Shown piece by piece: positions 35,684 to 55,567 of a DNA stretch of 60,390 nucleotides; the first letter of the stretch is position 1, and the number at the start of each line of letters is the position of its first letter. Origin of the DNA: an uncultured Bacteroidales bacterium (GTDB lineage: Bacteria > Bacteroidota > Bacteroidia > Bacteroidales > UBA4417); the NCBI GenBank assembly GCA_903913645.1, contig CAIWMA010000231.1, forward strand, positions 1 through 60,390. Reading direction: 5' to 3'. Under the pieces are notes generated by a model. It was not told the origin of the DNA and did no database searches. It saw only the letters and a list, made by a program, of their open reading frames with translations. The translations under genes and the position numbers were made by a program.

Positions 35684-38600
35684 CTATTGTTTAATAAACT
35701 TTTGAGTCTTTATCCCGCTTTTGCTGGCAATTCTAATGGTATAAATTCCATTTCGCAAACTTCCGATGTTGACATCTGAAGTATTAACCTGCTTATTAAC
35801 AACCATTTTCCCTTTTGAATCATATATATAAATCAGCGCATCCTGAACTTCTGAATTTAAGTATAAAGAATTAGTTGCCGGATTTGGGTAAACCAGGTTT
35901 TGATTCTTTTTCATATCTTTAATTCCGGTTGTATTGGCATCCTGAATAATTGTTAGTGTGATGGATGGGGCTTTTGTGTTCAGAAATGTGATCGTTACAA
36001 TGGCCGTTCTTGCTTCACCAGTAGTGTTTTCAGAAGCTGTAAACGTTAATAATCCATCGCCGGTACCAGAATTACTGCTTATTGTTAACCATTGCTGATT
36101 ACTTGTAGCTATCCAGTTGCTGTTTGAAATAAAGCTGAAAGTTGTTTTGCTTCCGTCTGATGCATCAACAAATAATGTGTTGGGTGAAGATTCCAGCACT
36201 CCAAGTGTTGCTATTATAGCTGTCAGATAGCCTTTGTATGGTGGATCAAAGTTTTGAAGTGTTAAAGCTGTTGCCCAGTTTACTGAAATACTTAATATAT
36301 CATCATCGAATACACTTAATGAACCCGTATTATCTCCCTGGTTATTGGGCAATGTTTTCAACCACTGAATCGCACCATCATTATTGTACTTGGTTACAAA
36401 TATATCGTATTGACCCACAGATTGATGCGCAATCCCTTGGATGACATAGTTGCCATTAATATATCCCCCTGCATAAATATTTCCTTTCTTATCCAAATCT
36501 AACCAGTCACCATAGTTGTACGAAAATGTATTTTTATACACCGCATCAGCCCATACTACTCCACCGTCTGAATTAATTTTAGTTAAATAGAACGAAAAGG
36601 CATTTCCGATTGGGTTTGTCAAGGTAGTACTTCCGAATGTGGCATTATTCTTGCATGAACCATAAAGATAGGAATTTCCCGCCGAATCGGTTTTTATATC
36701 TACTGGCCATCCATCGGCAATACTGCTGTTACCTGCCACACCGCCGTAAGTGAAAGCCCAAAGCGGAGTGCCATCCGGATTTATTTTTACCAGGACAGTT
36801 CCCGCGTCATTATTGGTTTGGGCTGCAGTAGCAGTGCCAAATACGAGTTGACTTGTTGTAGAGTTATACATTTCCCCGGCAAGATAAATATTATCTTCGG
36901 CATCGGTTGATACCATGGCACTATATACTACGTCAGCAACAGGATAGCCACTGGCCCACAAACAGTTTCCTGCAGCATCGAGTTTTATTATAAATACGCC
37001 ATCACTCGTTCCGGCATCGATAGTTTTATTGCCAACAGATAACAGATTTTTAAATTCTCCTGAAACAATTACATTGCCTGTTTTATCTGTAGCAATGCCA
37101 TAAATACAATGATTTCCTTCGGTTGCCAATTGTATTGCCCAAAGCACTTCGCCAGTTGAACTGTATTTTACTATATAACTGTCGTCAAATGTATCAGAAT
37201 TTGTGAAATCCTGTAAGCCAACTTTAACTGTCGTATTAAATCGGCCTGAAGTCAGCAGGTTATTGCCCTTGTCAAGGGTAAATTTTGGGCCATATATTAC
37301 AGCATTAGGCAACAAATCATTAATTTGATCAACCCACAATGTATTTCCCGATTTATCCAGTTTAAAATTGACTGTAGACCCCTGGTTGCTGTTAATTACG
37401 GTTCCGAAAAAATTGCTGAAACCTTGTACATAAGCCTGAACATAGGTGTTTCCAAGGTTATCGTGCTTCACATAGTTAATGTAATTATTACCAGCCTGGT
37501 GATTCGATGAACCTATATCCCAATCAGCACTTAAATTGTTATTATACTGAATTAATTTAAAATTACCTGTCTGGGCTATTTCATCCTGAAGAACAGGTAG
37601 AGTTGCAATAATTTTTCCGTTTGGAGTAACAACTGTGCGATTAACAGATGTGTATTGAAATCCATAGCCATTTACGGCTACTCCATTTTCATCGAATTTA
37701 AAAAGAAATTGAGATTGTTGCGGTACCGATATAGATCCAAAATTGAAAGTAGTTGCACCATAGTTAGAAATACCATATTCATAAATATTATTTGAATTGT
37801 CCTGAAACAAACGGTAAGCGTACATTTCTCTAGTTAAGGCTATGGCATCACTCGATTTAACCCATGCAAAGACAAAATTACTGTCGCATTTTGCAATATA
37901 TGTATAATGAGAAGCGCTTGGATTCGTGGTAGTTATAGTGTCCAATTTGAGAACTTTTGTGTAAGCGCCGGTAACCAAAATAGTTCCGGCGTTGTCAATT
38001 GCAAAATCGGCTATCGAAGAACCATCTCCCGCATTATAAGTTGATGATTGTGTTAACACTTCAGAAATTAATCTTGTGCCTGTTCCAACCGTATATGAAT
38101 AATTTAAGGTAAATGCTTTGGTAACGGGGTCATACTTATTAACTCCACTTTGTGTTACCGGATAAGTACTATAAGCACCAGAAATGGAGACTGTATTATC
38201 AGGATTAATTGATAAAATCAGTGTCCCAGAAGTGGCGGATAAATCTCCAACTGAAGTTGATAGTACATTTTCTTCTGTCCCGGTAACTGTTTTAGTTAGG
38301 TCAAATGTCCTGGTTCCTGTTGTTGGATGGATAAGTGTACCAACTGCATGGTAACTTCCTTCTTTAGTTGAGTTTGAATTTCCTGCAATTAATGTATTAT
38401 TATATATACCATCCAGGTCGGCTCTTGCCATAAATCCAGTGTTATATGCGTTTGCGCATGCTAAGTCGAATTTGCCGAAAGTTGTGGTTCCAGACTGCAA
38501 AGCCCCTCCTATAAATAAGTGAGGACCAAAAACACCTATTGCGTGCAAAGTCCTGTCAGGGTAGTTTTGCTCCCATTCTTTGACGCCTGAACTATTAAAC

Positions 38601-39151
38601 TTTAACAATGCTTTACTTTTGTTGTTCAGGTAACTATTGCCACTGTCATCAAACACTATTTTGCTGCTTCCTGTGCCTGAAGCGGCATAGGCAGAGAGCC
38701 AGAGCACATTGCCATCAGCATCCAATTTGGCAATAAATGCATTGTTTGTTGCATCAGATGCTATTGAGCTGCTACCCGACGAAATTGTGCCTGCAAAAGC
38801 GCCAACAACATAAATATTATGATTGGCATCCACTTGCATAGCTTCTGGTTTTACGTTTCCGTGTTCCATTCCATCAATCTGTTTTACCCATGCAACTGTA
38901 CCGGAACTGCTTAATTTAGTAAGGAATAAATCGGTTTGCCCGATACTGTTGTAAATAGTGTTATTAAACGTAATAGGTCCGCTGAAATAAGCTGCCAAAT
39001 ATACATTGTCGCCATCGGCGGCAACAACCCTTCCGGCTGGGAAGGCGTATGAGGTAGCTTGTAATACCCGCGTCCAGTCAGGTTCGGTTTGTGCGTTTAC
39101 CGTAATACCCGTAATTGTGAATGCAATAAGAAGTAGAAATAAATTTCTCAT
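35684..39151 (-). CDS. T9SS type A sorting-domain protein with SBBP-like beta-propeller repeats and a BACON domain
   Basis: Signal peptide VNA|Q; repeated D..GN.Y..G / F..K.D..G...W blades; BACON-like SNSNWIATSNQQWLTIS...NTTGEARTA; CTD VYPNPA...GIYTIRI...QKFIKQ. Confidence 0.88.
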   Translation of the reverse strand: MRNLFLLLIAFTITGITVNAQTEPDWTRVLQATSYAFPAGRVVAADGDNVYLAAYFSGPITFNNTIYNSIGQTDLFLTKLSSSGTVAWVKQIDGMEHGNVKPEAMQVDANHNIYVVGAFAGTISSGSSSIASDATNNAFIAKLDADGNVLWLSAYAASGTGSSKIVFDDSGNSYLNNKSKALLKFNSSGVKEWEQNYPDRTLHAIGVFGPHLFIGGALQSGTTTFGKFDLACANAYNTGFMARADLDGIYNNTLIAGNSNSTKEGSYHAVGTLIHPTTGTRTFDLTKTVTGTEENVLSTSVGDLSATSGTLILSINPDNTVSISGAYSTYPVTQSGVNKYDPVTKAFTLNYSYTVGTGTRLISEVLTQSSTYNAGDGSSIADFAIDNAGTILVTGAYTKVLKLDTITTTNPSASHYTYIAKCDSNFVFAWVKSSDAIALTREMYAYRLFQDNSNNIYEYGISNYGATTFNFGSISVPQQSQFLFKFDENGVAVNGYGFQYTSVNRTVVTPNGKIIATLPVLQDEIAQTGNFKLIQYNNNLSADWDIGSSNHQAGNNYINYVKHDNLGNTYVQAYVQGFSNFFGTVINSNQGSTVNFKLDKSGNTLWVDQINDLLPNAVIYGPKFTLDKGNNLLTSGRFNTTVKVGLQDFTNSDTFDDSYIVKYSSTGEVLWAIQLATEGNHCIYGIATDKTGNVIVSGEFKNLLSVGNKTIDAGTSDGVFIIKLDAAGNCLWASGYPVADVVYSAMVSTDAEDNIYLAGEMYNSTTSQLVFGTATAAQTNNDAGTVLVKINPDGTPLWAFTYGGVAGNSSIADGWPVDIKTDSAGNSYLYGSCKNNATFGSTTLTNPIGNAFSFYLTKINSDGGVVWADAVYKNTFSYNYGDWLDLDKKGNIYAGGYINGNYVIQGIAHQSVGQYDIFVTKYNNDGAIQWLKTLPNNQGDNTGSLSVFDDDILSISVNWATALTLQNFDPPYKGYLTAIIATLGVLESSPNTLFVDASDGSKTTFSFISNSNWIATSNQQWLTISSNSGTGDGLLTFTASENTTGEARTAIVTITFLNTKAPSITLTIIQDANTTGIKDMKKNQNLVYPNPATNSLYLNSEVQDALIYIYDSKGKMVVNKQVNTSDVNIGSLRNGIYTIRIASKSGIKTQKFIKQ

Positions 39152-41873: not shown

Positions 41874-43331
41874 CTAGAATTTGATGCGTTTTTCAATTTC
41901 TTCCACATAGGTACGGAATTGCTTGTCGGTCTCAATAAGGTTATTGACGGTGCGGCAGGCATGAAGTACTGTTGCATGGTCCTTGTTGCCACAATGCAGA
42001 CCGATAGTCGCCAGCGAAGCCTTAGTGTGCTTCTTAGAGTAATACATAGCTAGCTGACGGGCCTGAACAATATCGCGCTTGCGGGTTTTGGAGTTTATGG
42101 CATCAACAGGAATGTCGAAGTAATCGCAAACAATCTTCTGGATAAAATCAATTGATATTTCGCGTGCAGTGTTTTTTACGAATTTATCAATCATTTGCCT
42201 TGCCAGGTCGATAGTGATGGCTTTCTTATTTAATGACGACTGTGCCATTAATGATATAAGCGCTCCTTCCAGCTCGCGTACATTGGTTGTAATGCTGTAA
42301 GCAAGGTATTCGAGAACCTCGTAAGGCATATCAATTCCGTCCTTATACAATCTCTTTTTCAGAATGGCAATACGTGTTTCCAGATCTGGCACCTGTAAAT
42401 CGGCTGCCAGTCCCCATTTGAACCTTGACAATAACCTTGGCTCCAAGCCCTTTAATTCAACAGGCGCTTTATCGCTGGTGAGAATAAGTTGTTTGCCTTT
42501 TTGATGCAGGTGGTTGAAAATATGAAAGAAAACATCCTGCGTTTTTTCTTTCCCCGAAAGGAAATGAATATCGTCAATGATCAGTACATCGATCATCTGG
42601 TAAAAGTGAACAAAATCATTCTGGTTATTACTACGAACTGAATCTATAAATTGTTGCGTAAACTGCTCAGTTGCAACATATAAAACAGTTTTCTCAGGGA
42701 AATTATTCTTTACCTGCAAACCTATGGCCTGGGCAAGGTGAGTTTTGCCTAAACCAACCGGGCTGTATAGAAATAAAGGGTTAAATGCTGTTTTGCCAGG
42801 GTTACATGCAACTGCATAACCAGCTGAACGGGCTAACCTGTTGCAGTCACCTTCAATAAAATTATCGAAAGAGTAAGATTCGTTCAGTTGCGATTGAACC
42901 TGGATCTTTTTCAGACCGGGAATTACAAAAGGATTAGGTATTTCTTTCGATTTCCCTGCATTTAAATCAATCGGCATTTGCACTGATGGATTTGTGGTAG
43001 CTTTCCGGTTACTTGTTGGAATTTTGATAGTGTATGGATCGGAAGTATAAGCACCTTCCATTACAATGCTGTATTCTAGCCTTCCGTTTGGACCCAGTTC
43101 GTTGCGAATGGTTTTCTTCAGAAGTGTAATGTAATGTTCTTCCAGCCATTCATAAAAAAACTGGCTCGGAACCTGGATGGTGAGAATATTGTTATCCAGT
43201 TTAATTGCTTTAATAGGAGAAAACCAGGTTTTGAAGCTTTGATAGTTGAGGTTGTCGCGGATTACTTTAAGGCAATTTTCCCAAACTTCCTGATGAAGTT
43301 CTTTAATTCCTTCAATTTCGTTGTATTGCAT
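41874..43331 (-). CDS. dnaA: Chromosomal replication initiator DnaA
   Basis: FDNFIEGDCN, FNPLFLY..VGLGKTHL, LIIDDIHFL, RLLSRF, NVRELEGAL, domain IV RQLAMY...DHATVLHA. Confidence 0.98.
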   Translation of the reverse strand: MQYNEIEGIKELHQEVWENCLKVIRDNLNYQSFKTWFSPIKAIKLDNNILTIQVPSQFFYEWLEEHYITLLKKTIRNELGPNGRLEYSIVMEGAYTSDPYTIKIPTSNRKATTNPSVQMPIDLNAGKSKEIPNPFVIPGLKKIQVQSQLNESYSFDNFIEGDCNRLARSAGYAVACNPGKTAFNPLFLYSPVGLGKTHLAQAIGLQVKNNFPEKTVLYVATEQFTQQFIDSVRSNNQNDFVHFYQMIDVLIIDDIHFLSGKEKTQDVFFHIFNHLHQKGKQLILTSDKAPVELKGLEPRLLSRFKWGLAADLQVPDLETRIAILKKRLYKDGIDMPYEVLEYLAYSITTNVRELEGALISLMAQSSLNKKAITIDLARQMIDKFVKNTAREISIDFIQKIVCDYFDIPVDAINSKTRKRDIVQARQLAMYYSKKHTKASLATIGLHCGNKDHATVLHACRTVNNLIETDKQFRTYVEEIEKRIKF

Positions 43332-44154: not shown

Positions 44155-44318
44155 CCGCTACTGAAAGTTCTGAAAATTGGATTGATTTTACCGATTCCGG
44201 TTTTTGCAAAGATAGGCAGACCGGAAGGTATTTCTGAATGTTTTGCCATATATTTTTCCAGCATCAGCATTACATCGATCATTTGTCTAATTTTGACCTC
44301 TTTATTATAATAAGGTAT

Positions 44319-45239
44319 ATGACATCACACCTGGGCGAATTTGCTGCTTTACTTACAACTCTATTCTGGACTATTACGGCTTTAGCATTTGAATCTGCCA
44401 GCAAACGGATTGGTTCCATGCATGTTAACCTGCTCAGGCTTGGTCTGGCAGCTATATTTCTCTCGGTGTTTTCCTATTTCTACAGGGGGCTTTTGCTGCC
44501 TTTAGATGCTGATCTCCATACCTGGACTTGGCTTGCAATTTCGGGCATTGTAGGTTTTATCATCGGAGATTATTGCCTGTTTAAAGCTTATGTTATAACA
44601 GGAGCAAGGGTTGCCATGCTGATGATGACACTTGCACCGGTTTTTGCAGCGTTCACTGCCTGGATCATGTTAGGCGAGGTAATGAGTGGGAAAAGCATGC
44701 TTGCAATGATTATTACCTTGGGCGGTATTGCCCTAGTAATTTTTACCCGTACAGAAAATTCTGAACCGAGCCTATCAAAGAGTAAAAGACGGTACTCAAT
44801 GTCCTATCCTGTAAAAGGTGTTATTCTGGGTATTATTGCTGCTGCCGGGCAAGGCATAGGGTTGGTGTTTAGTAAATATGGTATGAGGAATTATGATCCA
44901 TTTGCTGCATCACATATCAGGGTTATAACTGGTTTTATCGGCTTTGCTATTTTGTTTTTTGTTTTAGGGAAATGGAAAGAATTACCCACATCCTTCAGGA
45001 ATACCAAAGCCATGAAATGGCTTGTAGTCGGGTCCATATTTGGCCCATTTCTTGGTGTTTCATTTTCGCTGATGGCCGTTCAGCATACCAATGCCGGAAT
45101 TGCTCAGACTATAATGTCGCTTACGCCTGTATTTATTATTCCTCCTGCAGTTATATTTAATAAGGAGCGGGTTACTGTGCGCGAAATCATTGGGGCAGTT
45201 ATTGCGGTGTGTGGCGGTGTGCTGTTTTTTATCTGGTAA
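44319..45239 (+). CDS. DMT/EamA family transporter
   Basis: About ten hydrophobic helices in two EamA-like halves. Start moved to the ATG at 44319 because a TAATTTTG -7 box lies at 44288-44295. Confidence 0.85.
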   Translation: MTSHLGEFAALLTTLFWTITALAFESASKRIGSMHVNLLRLGLAAIFLSVFSYFYRGLLLPLDADLHTWTWLAISGIVGFIIGDYCLFKAYVITGARVAMLMMTLAPVFAAFTAWIMLGEVMSGKSMLAMIITLGGIALVIFTRTENSEPSLSKSKRRYSMSYPVKGVILGIIAAAGQGIGLVFSKYGMRNYDPFAASHIRVITGFIGFAILFFVLGKWKELPTSFRNTKAMKWLVVGSIFGPFLGVSFSLMAVQHTNAGIAQTIMSLTPVFIIPPAVIFNKERVTVREIIGAVIAVCGGVLFFIW

Positions 45240-45323: not shown

Positions 45324-45407
45324 CCCTTTTCAAAGATTTTGTACATGTTACTTAAATATCATGTTTTCCCATGATGTTTGATGTATCATTATAGTTAGAT
45401 ATTTGCA
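45324..45407 (+). promoter_or_regulatory. Upstream element copy 1: ATCATG-N6-CATGAT palindrome (45358-45375) plus GATATTTGCA -7-like box (45398-45407)
   Basis: 47 of 55 nt identical, ungapped, to 47720-47774; 22-nt gap between palindrome and box in both copies. Confidence 0.7.
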
Positions 45408-45470
45408 TACTACAATGCCTTAAACCAAAACTGAATGAACTAATTTTTTAACAATTAAAAACTCAGCATT

Positions 45471-47444
45471 ATGAGAAAGATAATTACGCTTATAACAGCC
45501 ATTTTTGTTTCTGTTTTTGTTTCCGCCCAGGCACCTCAGAAAATGAGTTACCAGGCTGTAATCAGGGATGCCGGAAATACACTTGTAGTAAATCGTTCTG
45601 TTGGAATGAGGATAAGCATATTGCAGGGGACCTCGGCTATTTATGTTGAAACACAAACAGCAACAACCAATGCCAATGGATTGGTGACTATTGAAATTGG
45701 TGGTGGAACTGTAGTTTCTGGCAATTTTTCGACAATAAATTGGGCAAGTGGAGCCTATTCCATTAAAACCGAAACTGATCCGGTTGGAGGAACCAACTAC
45801 AGTATTACCGGAACGAGTAAATTGCTAAGTGTTCCTTATGCATTATTCTCGGCAAATGGCCCTCAAGGTATTCAAGGTCCGGCAGGGCCACAAGGTTTAA
45901 CAGGTCCTATCGGACCAATTGGTCCTACCGGATTGACTGGTCCAGCCGGTGCCAAAGGTTCAACAGGTGCAACAGGCCCAACAGGTGCAACTGGCCCAAC
46001 AGGTATTTCAGGTCCGGCTGGCCCAGCAGGAGTTTCAGGCCCGGCAGGTCCTGCGGGAGCTAAAGGATCAACAGGTGCAACTGGATTAACAGGGCCTACA
46101 GGTCCAATTGGCCCGACAGGCGCCACTGGCTCGGTGGGTCAAACAGGCGCAACTGGTGCAGCAGGGTCAACAGGTCCTGCAGGCATTTTAACATCCGGAT
46201 CTGCCGCAGGCAATACTCCATACTGGAACGGAACAGCCTGGATTACAAACAGTAGTAATATTTTTAATAATGGCGGTGCTGTTGGCATTGGCACTGCAAC
46301 ACCAGGTTTCCCATTAAACTTTTCCAACGCATTGGGCGATAAAATTTCGCTTTATGGGAACACAGGCGGCCATTATGGTTTTGGCGTGCAAGGTGCATTG
46401 CTGCAAATACACAGCGATGCATCAGCAGCAAATATTGCATTCGGGTATGGGTCAAGTGCAAGTTTTACCGAACGGATGCGAATCATCAATGCAGGTGGTG
46501 ACGGATTGTCATTGAATGGCCGCATGACCTTACGCAACGGCACCGTCCCATTAGACATTAACTATGGCAGCGGTATTTGGATGTACAAAGCTGACAACTC
46601 TGCAGCTCTTGGTTTTATGGGTGTGCAAAACAATCAAAACCTGGGTTTTTATGGCGGGCCAGGTGGTTGGGGGTTTACTTATGATGCACTGAACAGTCGC
46701 GTGGGAATCGGCAATAACAATCCCAACGCACCGCTTGCATTTGCAGCATCCCTGGGAAAAAAAATAACCTTATATCCCGGTACCACTGGTGATGTTGGCT
46801 TTGGTGTTGCTGGTAACCGCTTGCAGATTTACGCTGATAATCCAAATGCAGATGTGGCTATTGGTTATGATGCAGCAGGAACATTTAATGAACGCTTTGC
46901 AGTAAAGGCTAATGGTGCACTTGCTGTAAATAGTAATACAGGAACTGCAGGGCAAGTATTGCAGAGCAATGGGGGAGCAAGTGCTGCCAAATGGGGATAT
47001 ACTCCATCTGTTGTTTTTTTTACTACCCAAGGTAGCATCACGTTAAATGGCACAGATTTATGTACCGATATTACAGGCATAAATGGAAATGTTTTTACTA
47101 TTGCTGCAGCATCAATGATTACATATTCCTATTCTATTCCACTTTTTGGTATTAGTGGTCCATTGTCGTCAACAGGATTTGTGATTATTCAAATATTAGA
47201 TGCTAATGGAAACCAGGTTTCAGCAACTAACTCGGTTTTTACAGTCGAAAGCTATATAGCTCGAACTATTAACCTAACAGGTGTAGGCGATCTTGCTGCT
47301 GGTACCTATACGATAATTGCAAAATTAGCGCGGATATCAGTTGGAGAAGGAGATACTAAAAACCTGGTTGCTAGTTTTAATCTTTGTTCAGAATTTGTGG
47401 GAGTTTACCCCGGTCAATTGATCATATCTATTTTCCCAAAATAA
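45471..47444 (+). CDS. Secreted collagen-like / tail-fibre-like protein
   Basis: Signal peptide VSA|Q, Bacteroidota N-domain (SYQAVIRD...LLSVPYAL), 37 consecutive Gly-X-Y triplets, two VGIG-initiated fibre-shaft repeats, beta-rich C-terminal head. Confidence 0.85.
45858..46190 (+). repeat. Collagen Gly-X-Y repeat (37 triplets, Thr/Pro/Ala-rich)
   Basis: GPQ GIQ GPA ... GST GPA GIL, uninterrupted. Confidence 0.95.
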
Positions 47445-47719
47445 AAACAAGTTCAAATTTCAATACAAAACGGGCACTGTGCCTAAAAACAGTTCTTTCG
47501 ATTAAGATAGCGGATTCAGGCTTGTCACTTTTGGCTCAGGTACTTGTAATTTTGAATTGACAGCGCAACAAGATTCGGAAGGGTATTTTGGTGTTTATCC
47601 TGAAACAAACCCTTGGTGAAAATTTATACCATTTGCAGTAAACCTGGCAAGGTGTAAATCTTATCTGGGCAACGTATTCTTATGCCTTTTTAAGAACACC
47701 AATAATCCTGTTCTTATCT

Positions 47720-47803
47720 CCTTTTTCAATGATTTCGAACATATTACATAAATATCATGTTTTTACATGATGTTAAACCTTTTATTTTGAAACGATATTT
47801 GCA
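47720..47803 (+). promoter_or_regulatory. Upstream element copy 2: ATCATG-N6-CATGAT palindrome (47754-47771) plus GATATTTGCA (47794-47803)
   Basis: Near-identical to 45324-45407; lies about 22 nt before the probable start at 47826. Confidence 0.7.
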
Positions 47804-47825
47804 AATCAGCATTAACAGAATGATT

Positions 47826-49940
47826 ATGAAAAGAAATATTCTTGCTTTTGTTTTTTTAGTAACAGTTGGTTTCTCGTTTGCGCAAACAAAAACCAAACCG
47901 GTAGAAAAGCCTCCCACTCAAAAGGAGATGGAGGAAATGATGAAAGAGGTGCAGCAGGGAATGGACAGTATTAGCCCGGAAGATAAAAAGGCAATGGAGG
48001 ACATGGGTGTTAAATTGCCTTCAATGAATGGTATGCCTCAATTGACCGACCAACAAATGCAGGATGCAAGTGCTGCGAACGAAAGGATTGTACCGGAAAA
48101 AGATATTGCCAGGATTGCAAGTATTTCTAAAGTTCCGCTGACGAATAGTTCTCTGCCATCATTCTTATCCGCAACCCATGCCAATGTTGTGGCTTTGCTA
48201 AAACCATTATCACAATCAAAAGGGGAGGAGCTTTACCAGTTATTAAAAACCGAACATAATTCCATTGCTGAAATCGGCAATACAGCAGCAGGTTTATGGA
48301 TGATGGGCCGCGCAGAAATTGCTCTTTATTTGACTGGCAAAGCATGCATTGCAGATCAGGCAAATACAGATAACCTGAGCAATTATGCATCCATGTTATC
48401 CATGTCTGGTGCTGAACAATTGGCAATTCCCATTCTGGATAATTTAAACAAACGCTTTCCGGATAACAGCACAATACTCAACAATATCGGCCAGGCCTGG
48501 TTTGGCCTGGGCGATATGGATGAAGCAAATAAATATTTAGACAAAACAATTCGTATTTGTGCCGCTCATCCACAAGCAAATTTTACGAAATCTTTTATAC
48601 TGGAAAGCAAAGGTAACATGCGAGGCGCAGTTGAAGCAGCTGTTGCCAGCACTAAAGCCGGCTATAGCCAGGAGAAGGAAAACCGGCTGAGTAAATTAGG
48701 ATATGATCTGAAAAGTGATGATGTACAATGGGATAAGCCAATGCCGCAGGATCCGCTGGGCCTTGAAAAGTTCAGGTGGCCTGCTTTCCCAATGTCAGTG
48801 GAAACCAGTAAAGGGTTGGAGAATGAATGGGATGCTTTCAGGGAGTCATGTGCTGAAGAACTGGAAAAATTACAAAGCCAGGAGGCTGAATTGATAGAAG
48901 TCGCAAATTCTGTCAGCGATATGCGCAATAAGCAGTTACTCGGAGCCGGCTCCAAAGGGCAGGCTGCTTCACTTTTCCCGCCCCTGGCATATAAGGCTTT
49001 TGTAAAGTTAAAATACCTGGTTGATGATAAGGACGGGCATATAGCATTTTCATCCGCAAAAAAAACAGAAGCTATAGTGCAGGCAAATACTGATCTGGAC
49101 ATTCTTTATAATGCCTATTCCGATCAAATTAAAGCTTTAAATGAGATGTATGGAAAAAAATTTGGCGAAGGCAAGGAAAATCCTTTCAAGGAGGCATGCA
49201 ATGATTTTAATGGTGCAACAAGTAATTATTTAAGCGCAGCCAATTCTCTATTGGAGCGAACACAAATTGATTACCTGAATTTCCTGCGTCGTCGGCTCAA
49301 TGACCAGATTTATTACGACCAGTACACCAAATGGCCCGAACAATTTGAAGTTGAAAAAGTTCTTGCAAAAGAAAAATGGCTGGCATCGATATCAGGTATG
49401 ACAGTTAAGTTTATGAACATAAGCAATTATTGCTTTCAAAATGAGGAAGTTAAACCAGGTAAGTTTTTGCTATCCGAATTTGATGATGTACATTGTGAAT
49501 ACCATAGCGAGTATAAATCACCGGTTGGCAGTATAAATATTGACTGCAGCAGAATGACAACCAAACTGGACCTGAAAGCTATAAAACTTGGATTAAAGCA
49601 GGATATGAATAAGGAAACTTTTGGCGACCAGTTTATGTCATGCTCAGTTGAGGTGGGAGCTAGTGCCAGTGCCGGTGTTAATTTAGGACCGCTAAAAGCT
49701 GAAGCCTCTGCCGGTGTTGCTTTAGGAGTTGAAATTGACCGCACCGGAGTAACAGATGTTATTGTAAAAGGATCGGCAGGTGTAAGCGCCGGTTCTGACA
49801 TTATAAGTGGCGGAAGTAAGGCTGGAGTAGGCGTGAGTGATGTTTCAGTAGAGGCAGGAGTAGAAGGACAGGTAAGCATAATGAGTGGAAAATCCTCTGT
49901 TGGAGGCACCGGGGTTCTATCAGGAGCATTTAAACATTAA
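47826..49940 (+). CDS. Secreted TPR-containing protein with helical middle and Gly/Ala/Val-rich C-terminal region
   Basis: Signal peptide MKRNILAFVFLVTVGFSFA|Q (start moved from 47757, whose ATG lies inside the palindrome); TPR-like ILNNIGQAWFGLGDMDEANKYL; C-terminal SVEVGASASAGV...AEASAGV. Confidence 0.75.
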   Translation: MKRNILAFVFLVTVGFSFAQTKTKPVEKPPTQKEMEEMMKEVQQGMDSISPEDKKAMEDMGVKLPSMNGMPQLTDQQMQDASAANERIVPEKDIARIASISKVPLTNSSLPSFLSATHANVVALLKPLSQSKGEELYQLLKTEHNSIAEIGNTAAGLWMMGRAEIALYLTGKACIADQANTDNLSNYASMLSMSGAEQLAIPILDNLNKRFPDNSTILNNIGQAWFGLGDMDEANKYLDKTIRICAAHPQANFTKSFILESKGNMRGAVEAAVASTKAGYSQEKENRLSKLGYDLKSDDVQWDKPMPQDPLGLEKFRWPAFPMSVETSKGLENEWDAFRESCAEELEKLQSQEAELIEVANSVSDMRNKQLLGAGSKGQAASLFPPLAYKAFVKLKYLVDDKDGHIAFSSAKKTEAIVQANTDLDILYNAYSDQIKALNEMYGKKFGEGKENPFKEACNDFNGATSNYLSAANSLLERTQIDYLNFLRRRLNDQIYYDQYTKWPEQFEVEKVLAKEKWLASISGMTVKFMNISNYCFQNEEVKPGKFLLSEFDDVHCEYHSEYKSPVGSINIDCSRMTTKLDLKAIKLGLKQDMNKETFGDQFMSCSVEVGASASAGVNLGPLKAEASAGVALGVEIDRTGVTDVIVKGSAGVSAGSDIISGGSKAGVGVSDVSVEAGVEGQVSIMSGKSSVGGTGVLSGAFKH

Positions 49941-49944
49941 AACG

Positions 49945-50937
49945 ATGATTAAGAAAACCATTATTCTAATTGCATTTGTGCTTACAGCACTGAGTTCAGT
50001 TGCGCAGGATTGCTCGCAGGAAGATTTGGCTCAAAAACCCGGCACCTGGAAAGCTGGTCAGCAAGGTTCAATTCATAATGTCACAGCAGCTGACCTGGCA
50101 AAAGAAAAGGCAGTATTATCCGGTATTCATAAAATGGTTTCATCGAATTACTCTCCTACAGGATGCCAGATTTCATACAGCACCGTTTTTGGGAAAGTCC
50201 CAATGGAAGGTCAAATATTTAAAGCAGATCCTTACTATTATTCTATGTACATTCTACGGTACCTATGTGATCAAAACAGCGCGGATAAGTCGAAATATTA
50301 TGTAGATATTTCAACCCCTACAACAGTTGATATTGTAGCTAATCAAATCGACTGCCTGAATACATTGTACGCCGCCAATCTTGCTGATGATGATTTCAGG
50401 GGTTATCTAAAACTCAAACAACGGCCACAAAAAAAAGATGGAGTTTGGTTTATGGGTGATGAAGTAGTAGGTGATTCTGGTACAGCATATGAAATAAAAG
50501 AATCCACCTGGCTGATTACCTTTAGTGACACACTTCCATTTATATATGTCACCCGTAAAGAATATCTTTTGATTGAAAGGAAAAGACTGGAGAAATCAGT
50601 AAAAGACAGCCCTGGTGAGAAGGAATATTTCCAAAAATTCCTCGATAATATCAGTGAGTATTTAACCAAGCCAGAGAGCGAATTAAGCCAGCCCGCCATC
50701 TGTTTGTGGAATGACGAAGAAAGGTTTACCGGTTTTGTTGATGAAGGCACCCTGGGCTCTTTTTTTGCAATAAAGCCAAATCTTTCATACTACAAGAAAA
50801 ACCTACCGAAGTCATCGCCACAATTTTTTACTGTTGTCTATACATTATCACTCGGAGATCCGGTGTTTGAGGCAAATATAGCAGCAATAAAAGAAGCCGT
50901 TGATTTTGCCAAGCTGAAAAGCATGCTTGGGAAATAG
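49945..50937 (+). CDS. Secreted hypothetical protein
   Basis: Signal peptide MIKKTIILIAFVLTALSSVA|Q; ATG 4 nt after the previous stop; no recognised family. Confidence 0.7.
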   Translation: MIKKTIILIAFVLTALSSVAQDCSQEDLAQKPGTWKAGQQGSIHNVTAADLAKEKAVLSGIHKMVSSNYSPTGCQISYSTVFGKVPMEGQIFKADPYYYSMYILRYLCDQNSADKSKYYVDISTPTTVDIVANQIDCLNTLYAANLADDDFRGYLKLKQRPQKKDGVWFMGDEVVGDSGTAYEIKESTWLITFSDTLPFIYVTRKEYLLIERKRLEKSVKDSPGEKEYFQKFLDNISEYLTKPESELSQPAICLWNDEERFTGFVDEGTLGSFFAIKPNLSYYKKNLPKSSPQFFTVVYTLSLGDPVFEANIAAIKEAVDFAKLKSMLGK

Positions 50938-51039
50938 GAATAAATCCTTATGAATTACTGCGTATAAAGCATTTTTGAATACGCCTGTTATTAAAGATTA
51001 CCGGAGATTTCAACCAATATTAATAATCAATTAAGTGTC

Positions 51040-52659
51040 ATGAAAAAAGTTTTTATACTAATCGTTTTTGCAGCCTTATTGGCCAGTTCAGAAGCACAAA
51101 CACCTGTGAAATCCGTAGCTAAACCAGCAACCGGCAGTTCACTTTTAAGTGGAATTTACTTTGCTCCATCCGGAAGTTCAATTATTCTGCAGAATAATGC
51201 TAAAAACGACCTTACTATTACTGCGAAAAAGGAAGTTGGCCTGGTGTATAGCAAAAATGCTTTCAGTTTTGCGACACCTTTTCCTAATGGAATCAAATAC
51301 AAAGTCTCCGTTAAAAAAGCACCTGCCGGGCAAACCTGTATCATTAACACGGGAAGTGAAGGAACAATGCCACAAAGTACAAACTCACTCCGGATTTGCA
51401 GCGATTATACATACGACAATGTAAGCCGGAGCTCTGATGATAAGACTTTCAGCACTTTTTACGAAAGCTCTGATCCGGATGTGGGTGGGGCATCAGGCGA
51501 AGACGGACGCTATGTTGTTTTTGTTTCCTCGGCAACTTTTGCAGGTTCTACTGGTAAACACCGGCAGATATTCTGGCGCGACCGCAACACAGGTACAACT
51601 AAACTGGTAAGTGCTTCCGCCAGCGGTCAGGAAGGCGATGGAGATAGTTATTATCCCGCCATTTCTGGCGATGGTAAAACAGTCGCCTTCGAATCGTATT
51701 CAACCAACCTGGTTGATGGTGATAAAAATGGGTACAGGGATATTTTTGTCTGGCATTCCGCTACCGGCAAAATACAAACGGTAAGCATTGGCAAAAATGG
51801 CGCTTCTGCTGATGCCGAGAGTTATGAAGCTACGGTTTCAGGTGATGGAAACCTGATAGCATTTACTTCAGCTGCCAGCAATATTTCAGAAATAGAAAAA
51901 GGCGTTTCCAATAACAATGTTTTTATTCGGGATATGTCGGCTGGCATTACCACAATGATCAGTGTTGATCCCAGAGCGAAAAAAGGCGGCGGCGGTTCCA
52001 AACCTTCCATTTCCTACGATGGCAGTAGGGTAGCGTTTTACTCTCATACTGAAACCCTGGTTCCTAACGACAACAACGGACTTTGGGATATCTTTTTATG
52101 GGAGAAAGGTGTTAATGCGCTTAAACGGATAAGCCTTACCTCGGATCATAAGGAGCGCAACCAGGGCAACGAAAGTGCCAATAGGGTAGTAGCTCCGGCT
52201 ATTTCAGGAAATGGTCGCTACATTGCTTATGCAACTACTGCCACCAACATGGTTCCTAACGATAACAATAATTTCCAGGATGTTTTTCTTTACGACAGCA
52301 ATACCGACAGTACAATAATGGTTAGCAACGCCAACGATGGCAAACAAGGAAATTCGGACAGTCCAATAGGGCAGGGAGAAAAAATTGCCATTACGTTTGA
52401 CGGAAGCTGGTTAGCTTTTTCGACCAACGCTACCAACCTGGGCGTGCCAGCAGCAAACGTAGTAATGCATAACAGAGCCACTGGGCAAAACAAGGCGGTT
52501 TCAACAGTGGTTGGGAGTAGTGTAGGCCGTGCAACCTTTTCGCAGCAAGGCGGCTATGTTGTATTTGGAATAGGAGGCAAAATTGACAGCAGATTTCAGT
52601 CATCGGGAATTTTTGCAAACTTTACCGGCGTTGGCCCATGCCGGTTTTGTCCGGAATAA
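51040..52659 (+). CDS. Secreted protein with Ig-like N-domain and TolB/PD40-like beta-propeller
   Basis: Signal peptide SEA|Q; LQNN...FSF.T...G..Y.V.V...P.GQTC module; repeated P.ISGDG..VAF.S..TNLV..D.N...DIF blades; C-terminal CRFCP. Confidence 0.8.
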   Translation: MKKVFILIVFAALLASSEAQTPVKSVAKPATGSSLLSGIYFAPSGSSIILQNNAKNDLTITAKKEVGLVYSKNAFSFATPFPNGIKYKVSVKKAPAGQTCIINTGSEGTMPQSTNSLRICSDYTYDNVSRSSDDKTFSTFYESSDPDVGGASGEDGRYVVFVSSATFAGSTGKHRQIFWRDRNTGTTKLVSASASGQEGDGDSYYPAISGDGKTVAFESYSTNLVDGDKNGYRDIFVWHSATGKIQTVSIGKNGASADAESYEATVSGDGNLIAFTSAASNISEIEKGVSNNNVFIRDMSAGITTMISVDPRAKKGGGGSKPSISYDGSRVAFYSHTETLVPNDNNGLWDIFLWEKGVNALKRISLTSDHKERNQGNESANRVVAPAISGNGRYIAYATTATNMVPNDNNNFQDVFLYDSNTDSTIMVSNANDGKQGNSDSPIGQGEKIAITFDGSWLAFSTNATNLGVPAANVVMHNRATGQNKAVSTVVGSSVGRATFSQQGGYVVFGIGGKIDSRFQSSGIFANFTGVGPCRFCPE

Positions 52660-52722
52660 TCAGATTTGCTTAACCAGTACTGAATATTAAACAATAATCA
52701 TTCACAATCTAAATCAATTCTT

Positions 52723-53241
52723 ATGAAAGCAATCATTTTAATCCTGTTACTGTCTCCGATTTTTGTATTTTCACAAAAATCCAATATTTTTATTAAACTC
52801 ACCGATGCCCATGGTCAGCAAATTAAAGGTGACGCAACAGAGAAGGGCTATGAAAGGTGGCTGGGGTCTTCCACTGTTCATTCTTCGGGGAAAAACAATA
52901 CATCCTTCAGTTTCATGATGACTATTTCAGGAGCTTCAGCTGATTTGAAAAGAGCAATGACCAACGGCGAATTACTTATTGACGGGCAAGTTGTTGTTAC
53001 AGCATTGGATCCAATGGGATCAGGCAGGATGATTACGAGTTACACTATTAAGATGGAAAGTATTTCTGTTTTAACGTGCGAAGAATCTGTGGGTTGCAAT
53101 GGTGTGATGAATACATCTGTGACCTTGCAGGCAACCCGGATTGGATGGACATATTACCAGACTGGCAAAACCGGCTCGCCAGTTGTATCAAAAAAATATG
53201 GATGGGATGCAGGAAATGATAAGGAATGGACTAATTTTTAA
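52723..53241 (+). CDS. Hcp (T6SS tube, Hcp1-type)-like protein with N-terminal Sec signal peptide
   Basis: Signal peptide MKAIILILLLSPIFVFS|Q, then IFIKL...IKGD, FSF...S..L..A...G, YTIKME...V, SVTL...IGWTY, KYGWD, matching the Hcp1 motif order as I recall it. Confidence 0.7.
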   Translation: MKAIILILLLSPIFVFSQKSNIFIKLTDAHGQQIKGDATEKGYERWLGSSTVHSSGKNNTSFSFMMTISGASADLKRAMTNGELLIDGQVVVTALDPMGSGRMITSYTIKMESISVLTCEESVGCNGVMNTSVTLQATRIGWTYYQTGKTGSPVVSKKYGWDAGNDKEWTNF

Positions 53242-53339
53242 GTTAGCCGGACACGTTGTATAATCATGTCTTGTTCTATTCGTCAGCTGTATTTGCATTC
53301 AGAATAGAAAAAAGATTTTAAAACCTAATTACCGGGGCT

Positions 53340-54925
53340 ATGAAAAAAATATGCTTTGTTTTCCTTTTCAGTATGTTACTGGGGAATTTATTTGCCAGAA
53401 GGAAACTTTCGATTTGTTTGCCTATTTACCACCAGCAGGGTGGAAAAAGGAAGTTACTGAAAACATTATCAGTTACACCGGTTTTAATAATAAAACTAAA
53501 GCCTGGTGCCGGATTGGTATCGTGAAAAGCACAACCAGTAAAGGGAACGTAGAAGCTGATTTTGAAAGCGAATGGCAGGATCTGGTTGTAAGAAACTATA
53601 ATCCCACAGAAGCTCCCGTTCTGAATGAAGTGCGTGAAACTGACGGATGGAAAGTTAAAGATGGGGTTGTGAAATTTAGATTTAACAATGCGGATGCCCA
53701 GGCTATGCTTACAACCATAAGCGGATTCGACCGTTGCGCAAGCATTGTCGTCACACTCAATAACCAGGAGTATTTAGAAAATATTGACGCATTTCTAAAG
53801 TCTGTTGAATTCAAAAAGATAGAAACATCTGCTCTCCCGGTTTCTGTAAACTATTCAGACGATACTTCCATTGTTGGTACCTGGGGAAATTCCATGACTT
53901 ACAATCAGCAGTCCGGGGATCTTGTTGTTCATGTTATGGGCTATGGTTACACAGCTAATCAATATACTTTCAATAGCAATAACACGTACTATTTTGTATC
54001 AAAAACTTTTTTGGCTTCTGATAACAAGATGCTATTGGTAAAAGAAAATGGTAATTACCAGATTAGCGGAAATAATATCACTATAGAACCATTAAATAGT
54101 GTAACAGAGTCCTGGAGCAAGAAGGATAGTCTTGATTCTCAAGGTCGGCAGGCCGGAGTAGACAAATGGGGCAAAGTTTTGTCAAGCCAAAAACGAGCAC
54201 TGGAAAAAGTAAATTATACGTTGACCAAACATTATTTTTCCGGTATTCAACAATGGAATCTGGTATTTCAATCTAATACTGCAACTCAAAGAGATGGTCC
54301 TTTCAGTAGCAATACTACTTTCAGTAATGCATGGTATTACAGTCCCATTTCATCCAACAATCCTGTTATAGAATTACCATATGGGCAAAAAATAACAGCA
54401 GATAACACAAAACCAGAACAACCTACTTCAATTACCGAAAACACAACACTTCTTGGCACATGGTGCATAAGTGCAAGCGACCAGTTAAATTACCGGGTTA
54501 AAAATGGTGTTGTGAGTACAATCTTTCGTCAATATACATTTAAAGCAAATGGCACTTACAATTGTAACATTAAAACGTTCGATCCGCTTTTAAATTCCAA
54601 TCTTTTGGGAAGAGAAAGCGGAAATTATAAAATCACAGGAACCAATCTAACCATCGATCCCCTAAAAAGTGTATTAGAAGAATGGAGCAAAATAAATGGC
54701 GCAGATCAATGGGGCCTGCTTTTAAAAACACAAAATGTTATCCTTGAAAAGGTGACATATAGTTTTAGCAAAATTTATGTTCCCGAATCAAGTGAATGGC
54801 AGCTTATTTTGAAAACCGCCAATCAAACAAAGAGAGATGGCCCTTTTAATAATTATGAGGGCAATGCATGGATATATATCATCACTTCACCATCCCATCC
54901 TTTAATTAAGTTACCTGGTGAATAA
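53340..54925 (+). pseudogene. Secreted protein with two tandem lipocalin-like domains, split by a 1-nt frameshift at about 53396 (pseudogene or sequence error)
   Basis: The frame starting at 53340 gives signal peptide MKKICFVFLFSMLLGNLFA; the -1 frame continues QKETFDL. GCC and CAG share the C at 53396, so one extra C restores FA|QKET. Confidence 0.75.
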
Positions 54926-55066: not shown

Positions 55067-55567
55067 TCAATCAATTCTTTTACTTGTTATTGATTCACAG
55101 GCTAATTTAAGCTTTGCAGTAATTTCATTATACTCATCATCATTCAGTCGGGCGCGGTTTTCACTATCCAGAATGCCATTCTCGCTAGGTTGAATTTTAC
55201 TGTACCATTCATTGCTTTCCGGTAAATCGAGTGGCTTACGGGGAACAATATGCAAATGAAGATGTGGAACTGTTTGACCTGCCGAAACTCCATCCTGTAT
55301 TGTCCAGTCGAAGCCGTCACAGTTGAAAACAGTTTTTAAAACCGAAGTGATTTTTCGCGCAAACACCATCATTTCACTCTGTTCATCCTCCGATAATTCG
55401 AAAAGTGATTCGTAATGCTTATTGGGGATAATAAGCGAATGACCCGGTAGTATTGGGGCAATATTGTAATATGCACTGAATCTTGATGTCCTGCAAAAAG
55501 ATGATTCAATAAATTCATTTCGGCAAAAAACACAAGTCTGATCAGTTGGATTGGTTGTTTGAAGCAT
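55067..55567 (-). CDS. HIT family nucleotide hydrolase (Fhit-like)
   Basis: CVFC, PILPGHSLIIP, QDG..AGQTVPHLHLHIVP histidine triad. Confidence 0.93.
   Translation of the reverse strand: MLQTTNPTDQTCVFCRNEFIESSFCRTSRFSAYYNIAPILPGHSLIIPNKHYESLFELSEDEQSEMMVFARKITSVLKTVFNCDGFDWTIQDGVSAGQTVPHLHLHIVPRKPLDLPESNEWYSKIQPSENGILDSENRARLNDDEYNEITAKLKLACESITSKRID

Follow-up and report, generated by a model that had tools for sequence, protein, structure and literature searches.

The window, a stretch of 60,390 nucleotides from an uncultured Bacteroidales bacterium, carries six plus-strand open reading frames (ORFs), g1 to g6, flanked by EamA (44238-45239) and HIT (55067-55567, minus strand) genes. An earlier note, made from the sequence of this locus, had described six co-oriented genes between these neighbors, and its observations were confirmed as a whole with one deviation, in g6. 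A family scan of the other 34 window ORFs identified no T6SS, eCIS or phage structural family, in agreement with the reported lack of sheath, VgrG and baseplate-type genes in the window. The window belongs to a 5.7-Mb genome assembled in 593 contigs and 93% complete. For comparison, 73 loci seeded with the Hcp homologue g5 and 80 metagenome loci seeded with g2 (the best 80 of 265 matches) were surveyed; both sets are biased by retrieval, which used two peptide patterns each.

The first gene, g1 (45471-47444, plus strand), encodes a collagen-like and tail-fibre-like protein of 657 residues. It contains collagen repeats (PF01391, E 5.8e-15), which mostly drive its matches to tail-fibre PHROGs. 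The N-terminus of g1 matches the NCBIfam model Bdello_MAT_N at 31 bits, under the cut-off of 60, and the domain scan found no Peptidase_S74 match in g1 itself. The earlier note had placed such a fibre at the hub of the system. Fibre genes of the g1 type occurred in just 3/73 Hcp-seeded and 3/80 g2-seeded loci (best 80 of 265), which does not favor this role; a positional link between the collagen fibre and the module is rare. In a few loci, g1-type genes with an endosialidase-chaperone (Peptidase_S74) domain precede g2.

Both g1 and g2 are preceded by a copy of an 84-nt direct repeat (45324-45407 and 47720-47803, both plus strand; 76% identical), as the note had observed. Copy 1 contains box 1 (CCCCTTTTCAAAGATTTT), the palindrome ATCATG-N6-CATGAT and a promoter-like end (TATTTGCA). 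In copy 2, box 1 and the palindrome are located 106 and 72 nt before the g2 ATG, respectively, similar to their positions at other loci, where the element aligns with a conserved region upstream of g2. Of 94 g2-upstream regions, 15 contained box 1, versus none of 1880 shuffles. The palindrome core occurs exactly three times in the 5.7-Mb genome, and a control pattern not at all. The three sites lie before g1, before g2, and on another contig (C313) beside a gene pair for a TPR-HisKA_3 kinase and a LuxR regulator. This third site has the kinase on one side and a T9SS-CTD gene on the other, and beyond the latter come two g1 paralogues, adjoining the two-component system. The two-component system was outside the window available to the earlier reader. 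Upstream of the operon, a TPR histidine kinase and a LuxR regulator are usually encoded divergently, with a kinase at most 4 kb upstream of g2 in 19/29 g2-seeded loci (from the best 80 of 265). Judged from the repeat, the palindrome count and the alignment with other loci, the duplicated element appears to be the control region of the operon family. The predicted operator common to g1 and g2 agrees with the co-regulation proposed before and suggests g1 as a fibre gene of the same regulon as the g2-g6 operon. The palindrome half-sites vary between genomes, and co-variation of half-sites would likewise be compatible with a hairpin in RNA or DNA instead of a protein-binding site.

The g2 gene (47826-49940, plus strand) encodes 704 residues from its likely start, and g3 (49945-50937, plus strand; 330 residues) begins 4 nt past the g2 stop. 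The g2 protein consists of a signal peptide, a Met/Lys/Glu-rich segment, TPRs with weak matches, long helices and C-terminal Gly/Ala/Ser-rich beta-hairpins. In the AF2 model (pLDDT 79), the TPRs span about residues 110-290, the helices 325-523 and the strands 560-696, the C-terminal half being modelled at middling confidence (pLDDT about 50-75). Comparison with solved structures returned matches to the TPR part and none to the rest. Cys-458 and Cys-557 are invariant, and Cys-536 and Cys-574 nearly so. Alternating small and hydrophobic residues in the modelled hairpins led us to speculate that they might insert into a membrane. The g3 protein had no match in Pfam, NCBIfam or the PDB and has a conserved cysteine pair (Cys-23/Cys-108). 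At several loci g2 and g3 stand alone, without other family members. The g2 family was detected by tblastn in 28/73 Hcp-seeded loci. Among the 58 g2-seeded loci whose downstream sequence reached 1 kb or more (from the best 80 of 265), g2 was directly followed by g3 (34 loci), family B (14), a different module family (9) or an unknown gene (1); five proteins are natural g3-g2 fusions with g3 at the N-terminus. Thus, the core of the operon is g2 followed by g3 or family B.

The genes behind the core are more variable. The accessory gene g4 (51040-52659, plus strand; 539 residues) encodes a PD40 (TolB-like) beta-propeller protein (PF07676, E 9.9e-13) with a weak match to the propeller part of Dpp5; its family (family 12) was present in 10 Hcp-seeded and several g2-seeded loci. 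The product of g6 (53341-54925, plus strand), also accessory, comprises a signal peptide, an N-domain and two lipocalin-like domains. Lipocalin_4 matched it in two stretches, and residues 17-180 matched a shared N-domain profile at E 5e-65; this N-domain was found in 127/1799 ORFs of the surveyed loci, always immediately behind the signal peptide. At some other loci OmpA-domain members (family 1.3) follow g2, module members elsewhere bear astacin-like and M19 peptidase domains, and in Chitinophagaceae M48 peptidase genes adjoin Hcp. The survey shows that the genes behind the core are interchangeable, including N-domain/lipocalin-like proteins, the PD40 propeller, OmpA or peptidase members and, in a minority, Hcp. 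The window and two other loci (L014 and L025) have the HIT/CoA/OmpA flank in common and differ in cassette content.

All six products are shown by their sequences to have an SPI-type signal peptide followed by Gln at +1, predicting export. The motifs VSA/Q (g1), SFA/Q (g2), SVA/Q (g3), SEA/Q (g4) and VFS/Q (g5), with the slash before the +1 residue, were all found in frame in the translations, the true starts of g2 and g3 being 47826 and 49945. Such a Gln behind the signal peptide (the Q-rule of Bacteroidetes) is documented in PMC5837995 and PMC10653852. None of the six had Cys at +1 (lipobox) or matched PF18962 or another T9SS CTD, as the note had stated. Conserved cysteine pairs or positions in g5, g2 and g3 were counted as further support for export. 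The sixth motif noted earlier, LFA/Q of g6, bridges a one-base frameshift in the window: translation of the signal peptide (MKKICFVFLFSMLLGNLFA) begins at ATG 53341, out of frame with the main ORF (53351-54925). Homologues of g6 read continuously through ...FAQKETFD... in a single frame. An extra C after 53394, which unites the two frames, was present in the contigs of all three other sequencing runs covering the site (X2, X3 and X5, from three studies; run X4 lacks coverage there). The shift thus reflects either an assembly error or strain variation, and the g6 product in its earlier, joined reading exists in the population.

The g5 gene (52723-53241, plus strand; 172 residues) was assigned to PF05638 (T6SS_HCP) at 28.1 bits versus a cut-off of 23.5. 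Its AF2 model (pLDDT 85) had only Hcp structures as top Foldseek matches (4w64, 4tv4 and 7fcf; TM 0.7-0.86, E down to 2e-11). The Hcp-like fold, failure of which the earlier note had named as a possible refutation, is confirmed. In 335 homologues of about 171 residues with the N-terminus covered, Cys-119 and Cys-125 are invariant. A g5-family profile retrieved 200 matches at E<=1e-3 among 1.84 billion representatives; with so few, the bulk of canonical Hcp must be outside its reach. By a crude test, a signal-peptide-like N-terminus was present in 81/88 full-length members among the 150 of 200 matches listed. PGAP labels family members "type VI secretion system tube protein Hcp". TssC (PF05943) was not found in the window's own genome (93% complete), in five other carrier genomes (two titled as whole chromosomes) or in 101 genomes of the order, and the same search matched just 4/201 genomes of the phylum, so that the model may be insensitive to the Bacteroidota T6SS type. 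As far as these searches (0/1 own genome, 0/5 carriers) reach, they bear out the proposal that g5 is exported and independent of a T6SS.

Neighborhood analysis argues for a module in which Hcp is not central. An Hcp ORF was called in 71 Hcp-seeded loci. Among the 61 Hcp-seeded loci with at least 1.5 kb upstream, the gene next upstream of Hcp was on the same strand and of a module family in 51, family A accounting for 34 of these. With at least 8 kb upstream (n=43), g2 was found in 24 loci, a kinase or regulator in 27 and some module family in 37. Conversely, 25 g2-seeded loci (from the best 80 of 265) had 8 kb or more of downstream sequence, and just 5-6 of these contained Hcp. The Hcp gene is accessory, nearly always in such an operon (37/43), and most of these operons lack it; the system is hence not built around an Hcp ring, as had been proposed, and has g2 plus g3 or family B as its core. 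Homologues of g2, g3, g4, g5 and g6 occur together on one strand in many Bacteroidota genomes with different flanks (EamA in 0/73 and HIT in 2/73 Hcp-seeded loci), and the co-occurrence therefore indicates a conserved module rather than a chance set of secreted genes. No conserved transporter (SusC/D, TonB-dependent or ABC) and no polysaccharide synthase genes accompanied the module in the surveyed loci, and PADLOC, whose library covers only phage defence, returned 0 matches for eight module proteins.

Several known systems resemble parts of the module. Tubes of the T6SS and of eCIS are built in the cytoplasm, and their subunits have no signal peptide. The g5 protein has the beta-barrel fold of T6SS Hcp/TssD, and distant family members keep an N-terminal "FLKIDGIEGES"-like motif behind the signal peptide. 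In contrast to Hcp/TssD, g5 has a Sec signal peptide predicted to be cleaved before a Gln (+1), carries an invariant cysteine pair, and is encoded among exported proteins in an operon instead of alongside sheath, baseplate or VgrG genes; its own and five other carrier genomes also yielded no TssC. The periplasmic part of Tol-Pal includes TolB (a PD40 propeller), CpoB/YbgF (coiled coil plus TPR) and Pal (OmpA-like). The module may be analogous in its kinds of domain, with PD40 in g4, TPR and long helices in g2 and OmpA-domain members elsewhere; however, TolQ/R/A-like genes are not conserved with it, sequence similarity is confined to generic domains, and g2 has the TPR first and the helices after. 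PgaA, BcsC and PelB are TPR-plus-beta-barrel exopolysaccharide exporters, and g2 could similarly place a periplasmic TPR before a C-terminal, possibly membrane-inserted beta-rich part. The modelled beta part of g2 is nevertheless short (about 140 residues, with some nine predicted strands) and separated from the TPR by a long helical bundle, and the module lacks accompanying polysaccharide synthase genes in the surveyed loci. The g1 protein shares its signal peptide, G-X-Y repeats (PF01391) and repeated fibre-like domains with phage tail fibres and the mosaic adhesive trimer (MAT) fibres of Bdellovibrio, the latter treated in PMC10769870; the sub-threshold Bdello_MAT_N match is a further likeness, whereas the host of g1 is not a known predator. 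Genes related to g1 elsewhere end in the Peptidase_S74 chaperone domain like collagen-like trimeric fibres, a domain without a match in g1, and g1 differs from these fibres in its predicted tie to a two-component regulon.

Differing cassette content at one site in relatives, the fragmented and 93% complete genome and the PGAP label would suit unrelated secreted genes collected at an insertion hotspot or, alternatively, an orphan hcp that serves a T6SS elsewhere. This explanation is already disfavoured and highly improbable: gene order and strand are kept across orders of Bacteroidota with different flanks, g3-g2 fusions occur naturally, g1 and g2 have a common operator, the signal peptide and cysteine pair are conserved throughout the Hcp family, and the five other carriers, two titled as whole chromosomes, lack TssC matches. 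The earlier note had favored a non-contractile periplasmic or surface assembly of phage-tail-derived parts, with an Hcp ring as hub, a fibre, a propeller and a membrane-inserting protein, for adhesion, antagonism or cargo delivery. The confirmed Hcp fold, the tail-fibre PHROG matches and predicted co-regulation of g1, the chaperone-bearing fibre genes before g2 in a few loci and the modelled beta-hairpin C-terminus of g2 are consistent with it. We nevertheless regard it as quite unlikely given the scarcity of Hcp and g1-type genes among the loci and the dependence of the PHROG matches on collagen repeats; the PD40 and lipocalin-like domains represent folds of general extracytoplasmic use, not tail parts, and the window scan revealed no further tail-like family. 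The note's interpretation thus holds for a real co-regulated module, and fails for the Hcp ring or fibre as its center.

An unlikely but somewhat better alternative is extracytoplasmic scavenging or processing, in which two-component-induced binding proteins (lipocalin-like, lectin-like and PD40) and peptidases capture and trim a peptide, lipid or glycan and Hcp is only one more binding protein. The Lipocalin_4 domains of g6, the Dpp5 match of g4 and the astacin-like, M19 and M48 peptidases at other loci speak for this idea; but the module had no conserved transporter in the surveyed loci, neither core protein (g2 or g3) showed an enzyme or binding family, and the window operon contains no peptidase. 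Envelope defence, in which a periplasmic Hcp homologue captures incoming T6SS effectors, the variable proteins are immunity or neutralising factors and the sensor detects envelope damage, seems very unlikely. It would accommodate a periplasm-directed Hcp homologue with no sheath gene of its own found, the fast content turnover at one chromosomal site among close relatives (the window, L014 and L025) and the predicted induction through a two-component system. The idea is purely inferential, however; the variable proteins (340-660 residues) are larger than typical immunity proteins, PADLOC with its phage-defence library matched none of the eight module proteins, and the vicinity showed no genes for toxins or effectors.

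We give about even odds (roughly 0.5) to the reading that g2-g6 is a member of a widespread, cassette-like Bacteroidota operon family encoding Sec-exported envelope proteins under a dedicated two-component system, with g1 in the same regulon. In this operon family, the regulator would bind the palindrome and jointly activate the operon and the fibre genes. Once exported, g2 could use its amphipathic hairpins to sit at or within the outer membrane as a scaffold that binds g3; the "complex" may be only g2 plus g3. The variable proteins would be accessory subunits binding ligands or partners, and the Hcp homologue outside the cytoplasm, by analogy with Hcp, might serve as a ring-shaped holder or carrier for a neighboring protein rather than as a T6SS tube. 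For the peptidase-bearing members elsewhere (astacin-like, M19 and neighboring M48), a degradative or scavenging role would fit as well. The output would be a changed cell envelope or surface, for adhesion or for protection in contacts with other cells. Together, the analyses point to a Sec-exported Hcp as an optional member of a widespread sensor-controlled operon, and to an undescribed envelope machine.

Six genes occupy the + strand at 45324..54925, flanked upstream by genes for DnaA, UPF0029 and EamA and downstream, on the opposite strand, by genes for HIT, a CoA-binding protein and an OmpA/DUF5723 protein. In Pfam, g1 (45471-47444) matches collagen repeats, g2 (ORF from 47757, likely start 47826) has a weak TPR match, g3 (ORF from 49885, likely start 49945) has none, g4 (51040-52659) carries PD40, g5 (52723-53241) matches PF05638 T6SS_HCP with 28.1 bits (cut-off 23.5), and g6 (53351-54925, with a signal peptide from 53341 in the other frame) contains two Lipocalin_4 stretches. 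Only 4 nt separate g2 from g3, followed by gaps of 102, 63 and 99 nt through to g6; because of these short gaps, and because the gene after g6 is convergent with it, g2-g6 look like a single operon. The fibre gene g1 is separated from g2 by 381 nt and has its own copy of a repeated element. The dnaA gene itself lies at 41877-43331, 2 kb upstream, and the locus may therefore be near the replication origin. Three unusual genes stand away from the module: the 1413-aa product of 10677-14915 joins glycogen synthase to phosphorylase domains, 16287-19658 encodes a 1124-aa CheB-CheR-PAS fusion, and 35687-39151 encodes a BACON protein of 1155 aa that carries a T9SS CTD.

The earlier note had read all six products as Sec-exported proteins with Gln at +1. 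For g1-g5 this is seen directly in the window, and g6 fits the same rule once one extra nucleotide is counted. Gln as the first residue of the mature protein is a rule for Bacteroidetes signal peptidase I substrates, according to PMC5837995 and PMC10653852. A lipobox is indeed absent: the cleavage sites are Ala-Gln or Ser-Gln in 6/6 proteins with no Cys at +1, and the Cys of g3 sits at +3. Nor do the T9SS type A CTD models PF18962 and TIGR04183 match any of the six at E<=0.01; CTD detection works in this genome, with matches in the BACON protein and in a 167-aa protein on another contig, C313. As for g6, its signal peptide (ATG 53341) and main ORF (ATG 53351) occupy different frames in the window, and its homologues run ...FAQKETFD... 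in one frame. We compared contigs of four other public sequencing runs over 52600-54100; one (X4) does not cover the site, and the three that do (X2, X3 and X5, from three studies) all have an extra C after 53394. The shift is thus an assembly error or a strain variant, and the gene is intact in the population.

The Hcp fold proposed for g5 was confirmed by the PF05638 match above the gathering score, an AF2 model and Foldseek. The model, built from 19 sequences, has a mean pLDDT of 85, and its top matches in the PDB are all T6SS Hcp proteins (4w64, 4tv4, 4hkh and 7fcf; E down to 2e-11, probability 1.00, target-normalised TM up to 0.86). A predicted complex of three copies of mature g5 scored 0.23 (mark 0.42) and is neutral on ring formation. 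T6SS Hcp/TssD is cytoplasmic and made without a signal peptide, whereas the g5 family has a predicted Sec signal peptide, which in g5 reads MKAIILILLLSPIFVFS with QK following the cleavage site and is kept in all 18 aligned full-length homologues. At E<=1e-3 the close family has 335 homologues, of which 120 were listed; almost every one of these is ~171 aa long and 119 have a precomputed PF05638 match, and C119 and C125 are conserved across the family. Run against 1.84 billion representatives, a profile matched 200 proteins at E<=1e-3 (85 at E<=1e-10). Full-length proteins (150-230 aa) make up 88 of the 150 listed, and 81 of these 88 pass a crude signal-peptide test; most of the seven failures resemble mis-called starts. 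In distant members the familiar Hcp N-terminal motif comes immediately after the signal peptide. The same search retrieved giant proteins in which the domain is repeated in tandem 4 to 25 times, and the two groups together indicate that the Hcp fold has more than one use beyond the cytoplasm. Six of the giants (P0136, P0164, P0172, P0197, P0210 and P0213) are 1142 to 4963 aa long, with 5 to 25 copies each; P0164 ends, by eye, in RTX-like Gly/Asp repeats, and several giants carry 5 or 6 Hcp-like copies, the subunit number of one Hcp ring.

NCBI names members of the g5 family 'type VI secretion system tube protein Hcp'. The sheath gene TssC (PF05943) was found in neither our own genome (0/1, 93% complete) nor the other carriers (0/5), and in 0/101 genomes of the order. 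The search was positive in 4/201 genomes of the phylum and so can detect the gene, with uncertain sensitivity for the Bacteroidota subtype; within that sensitivity, the Hcp homologue stands apart from T6SS loci in our genome and the five other carriers, as the earlier note had supposed. Pfam searches of the six genes and the other 34 window ORFs likewise bore out the absence of sheath, baseplate or spike families, which are also missing from the conserved gene clusters of the 73 Hcp-seeded loci described below. A genome-wide PF05638 search of our own genome missed g5 itself and thus cannot count weak Hcp relatives. The g5 family is rare, occurring in 2/401 genomes sampled from the class, our own included; this made random sampling of the class useless, and co-occurrence was therefore assessed in seeded loci. 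Cultured carriers, as titled in the database, are Terrimonas pollutisoli (H1YJ31), Terrimonas sp. R1, Mariniflexile maritimum (M5A1M) and Flavihumibacter sp. ZG627.

The Hcp-seeded set comprised 73 loci, one genome per species, all labelled Bacteroidota and mostly Chitinophagales, together with Cytophagales, Flavobacteriales and MAGs of Bacteroidales or Sphingobacteriales. Searched by tblastn with the window proteins, these loci contained g2 in 28, g3 in 22, g4 in 9, a g6-like protein in most and a weak collagen-type g1 match in 4; the flanking EamA and HIT genes were found in 0 and 2. Matches lay almost always on the Hcp strand. ORF clustering placed on that strand the g2 family, g3, two further families, B (~624 aa) and A (~462 aa, often multi-copy within one locus), g6 and other lipocalin-bearing types, PD40 proteins and a few small proteins; on the opposite strand upstream it found a TPR-HisKA_3 histidine kinase and a LuxR-type response regulator. 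An Hcp ORF was called in 71 loci. Where at least 1.5 kb of upstream sequence was available, a same-strand module family directly preceded Hcp in 51/61 loci (family A in 34), and with at least 8 kb, the g2 family was present in 24/43, the kinase or regulator in 27/43 and any module family in 37/43. Among loci L002-L074, those of Chitinophagaceae often have, downstream of Hcp, a 96-aa ORF, two genes for SET-domain proteins, one for an M48 peptidase and one for a 163-aa protein of family c8; this last family also occurs upstream of g2 in other loci.

Seeding on g2 gave 265 matches, and the 80 best of these, all metagenome loci, formed a complementary set, in 69 of which the g2-family protein was full length. 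For 58 loci, 1 kb or more of sequence was available behind g2: here the gene that came next was g3 in 34 and a family B member in 14, while 9 had some other module family in that place and 1 an unknown gene. A kinase lay within 4 kb upstream in 19/29 loci. Hcp was present in 5/25 loci with at least 8 kb downstream, or 6/25 with a broader profile of Sec-exported Hcp. Hcp thus depends on the module, and the module is independent of Hcp. Fibre genes of the g1 type were near the module in 3/73 Hcp-seeded and 3/80 g2-seeded loci. Five natural proteins fuse a complete g3 profile to a g2 profile; gene fusions are a classic sign of two proteins working together. A shared N-domain of ~160 aa, placed right after the signal peptide, was found in 127/1799 ORFs, including family A, g6 and several other types, joined to C-terminal parts that vary; it had no PDB match at E<=10 and no consistent Pfam match. 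Two close relatives sharing the HIT/CoA/OmpA flank (L014 and L025) carry different cassettes at the same site, and locus L081 has the order g2-g3-PD40-lipocalin without Hcp, from which it follows that the variable part of the module turns over quickly. Across the two seeded sets, then, homologues of g2-g6 do co-occur in Bacteroidota, and the conserved, probably co-regulated module of exported proteins is real. The earlier note was right on this point and wrong about the centre: the core is g2 plus g3 or family B, and the Hcp, PD40 and lipocalin types and the fibre are add-ons.

The AF2 model of g2 (pLDDT 79) has a TPR region (residues ~110-290), then four long helices (325-523) and finally a C-terminal sheet of long hairpins (560-696), which is rich in alternating Gly, Ala, Ser and Val and of lower model confidence. 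Structural relatives found by Foldseek (pdb and pdb_via_wide) and by a PDB profile search cover the TPR part only, and a search of the ESM Atlas led back only to Bacteroidota clusters of the protein itself, or, for the C-terminal half by itself, to nothing above 0.76. Because these searches reach only the TPR or the protein's own clusters, the predicted fold of residues 320-704 is unclassified, which does not imply novelty. Within the family C458 and C557 are invariant and C536 and C574 nearly so. The g3 family conserves one Cys pair and the motif KPNP..YY.KKLP.S.PQFF, and its profile had no PDB match below E 0.49. Pfam and NCBIfam contain no curated family for g3, the N-domain or the non-TPR part of g2. 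Just behind the g2 signal peptide lies a segment rich in Met, Lys and Glu (PPTQKEMEEMMKE...EDKKMM...), conserved family-wide in alignment A2; it corresponds to window 47880-48010 or residues ~20-65, and is absent from the g3-g2 fusions. The idea that the g2 TPR is a copy of the kinase sensor TPR was rejected (BLASTP E 0.25).

The duplicated element noticed upstream of g1 and g2 (45324-45407 and 47720-47803) aligns with a region conserved upstream of g2 elsewhere. This region consists of box 1 (CCCCTTTTTCCATGATTTT), a spacer of ~15 nt and a palindrome with a T-rich centre. Box 1 occurs in 15/94 g2-upstream regions versus 0/1880 shuffles. The palindrome half-sites vary by genome yet remain complementary, being ATCCTG/CAGGAT at many loci and ATCATG/CATGAT in the window. 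Allowing at most one mismatch, the palindrome core AAATATCATGTTTTNNCANGAT has exactly three sites in the 5.7-Mb genome, and a control pattern has none. No kinase or regulator adjoins the module in the window. The sole close orthologue of the regulator in our genome (69% identity) is on contig C313 with its kinase, as a HisKA_3 kinase and Response_reg/GerE regulator pair. In this region (locus L161, 5808-12906), the gene for the 167-aa T9SS-CTD protein is transcribed away from the pair, as are two paralogues of g1 (429 and 551 aa), one with collagen repeats; the divergent sets are separated by a stretch that contains the third control element. The three palindrome sites, one of them beside the kinase/regulator pair, support a putative single regulon of the fibre genes and the g2-g6 operon, with presumed binding by the regulator. 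A second g2 paralogue, 44% identical, is found at the edge of contig C469 (384-2477; L160) with no module gene downstream. We also considered box 1 as the start-codon region of a kinase and discarded this, as it is in frame in only one locus and the kinases begin farther upstream, each with a signal or membrane segment of its own. Bacteroidota promoters differ from the sigma-70 consensus; a scan for sigma-70 promoters and terminators was uninformative.

We infer every step of the mechanism after export. Most likely, g2 and g3 would scaffold an inducible envelope or surface complex, in which the Sec-exported Hcp homologue may hold or carry a neighbouring protein in the manner of a ring. A bolder reading, to which we give about a one-in-four chance, is that g5 forms a disulfide-bonded, T6SS-independent ring, periplasmic or on the cell surface, that is added to a sensor-controlled g2/g3 envelope machine and either holds or passes on modular neighbours (family A or the g6 type) or soaks up Hcp-adapted effectors that rivals inject.

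Other, less likely readings compete with the scaffolded complex. The assembly of phage-tail-derived parts proposed in the earlier note would draw on the Hcp fold of g5 and on g1, whose further matches in NCBIfam and PHROGs are all of collagen or tail-fibre type, apart from a sub-threshold Bdello_MAT_N match (the N-terminal domain NF053851 of the Bdellovibrio MAT fibre family, 31.3 bits and under the cut-off of 60, a lead only); against it stands the add-on status of both proteins. A scavenging set might account for the lipocalin-bearing types. An anti-attack set is a further candidate; PADLOC returned 0 matches for 8 module proteins. Chance clustering, or an orphan T6SS gene, would suit the varying cassettes at one site and the T6SS names given to the family; against it stand the module families found around Hcp, the signal peptide kept in its homologues and the TssC result.

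Titles and summaries in the literature gave no relevant account of a Sec-exported or T6SS-independent Hcp. From this, and from the lack of curated families for g3, the N-domain and g2 past the TPR, we would place the module outside the known kinds of system. Hcp is generally taken as a T6SS marker, and a signal-peptide Hcp in genomes without a detectable sheath means that such annotations would over-call T6SS in Bacteroidota; the signal-peptide family would represent a tail-tube fold co-opted for a non-cytoplasmic job. The operon family is widespread in soil and freshwater Bacteroidota and consists almost entirely of proteins that lack relatives in Pfam, NCBIfam or the PDB (g2 past the TPR, g3 and the shared N-domain). 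Its own sensor and recognisable operator offer a direct experimental handle. If the bolder reading is true, an operon family with a dedicated kinase/regulator and a co-varying operator would constitute an undescribed kind of envelope system.
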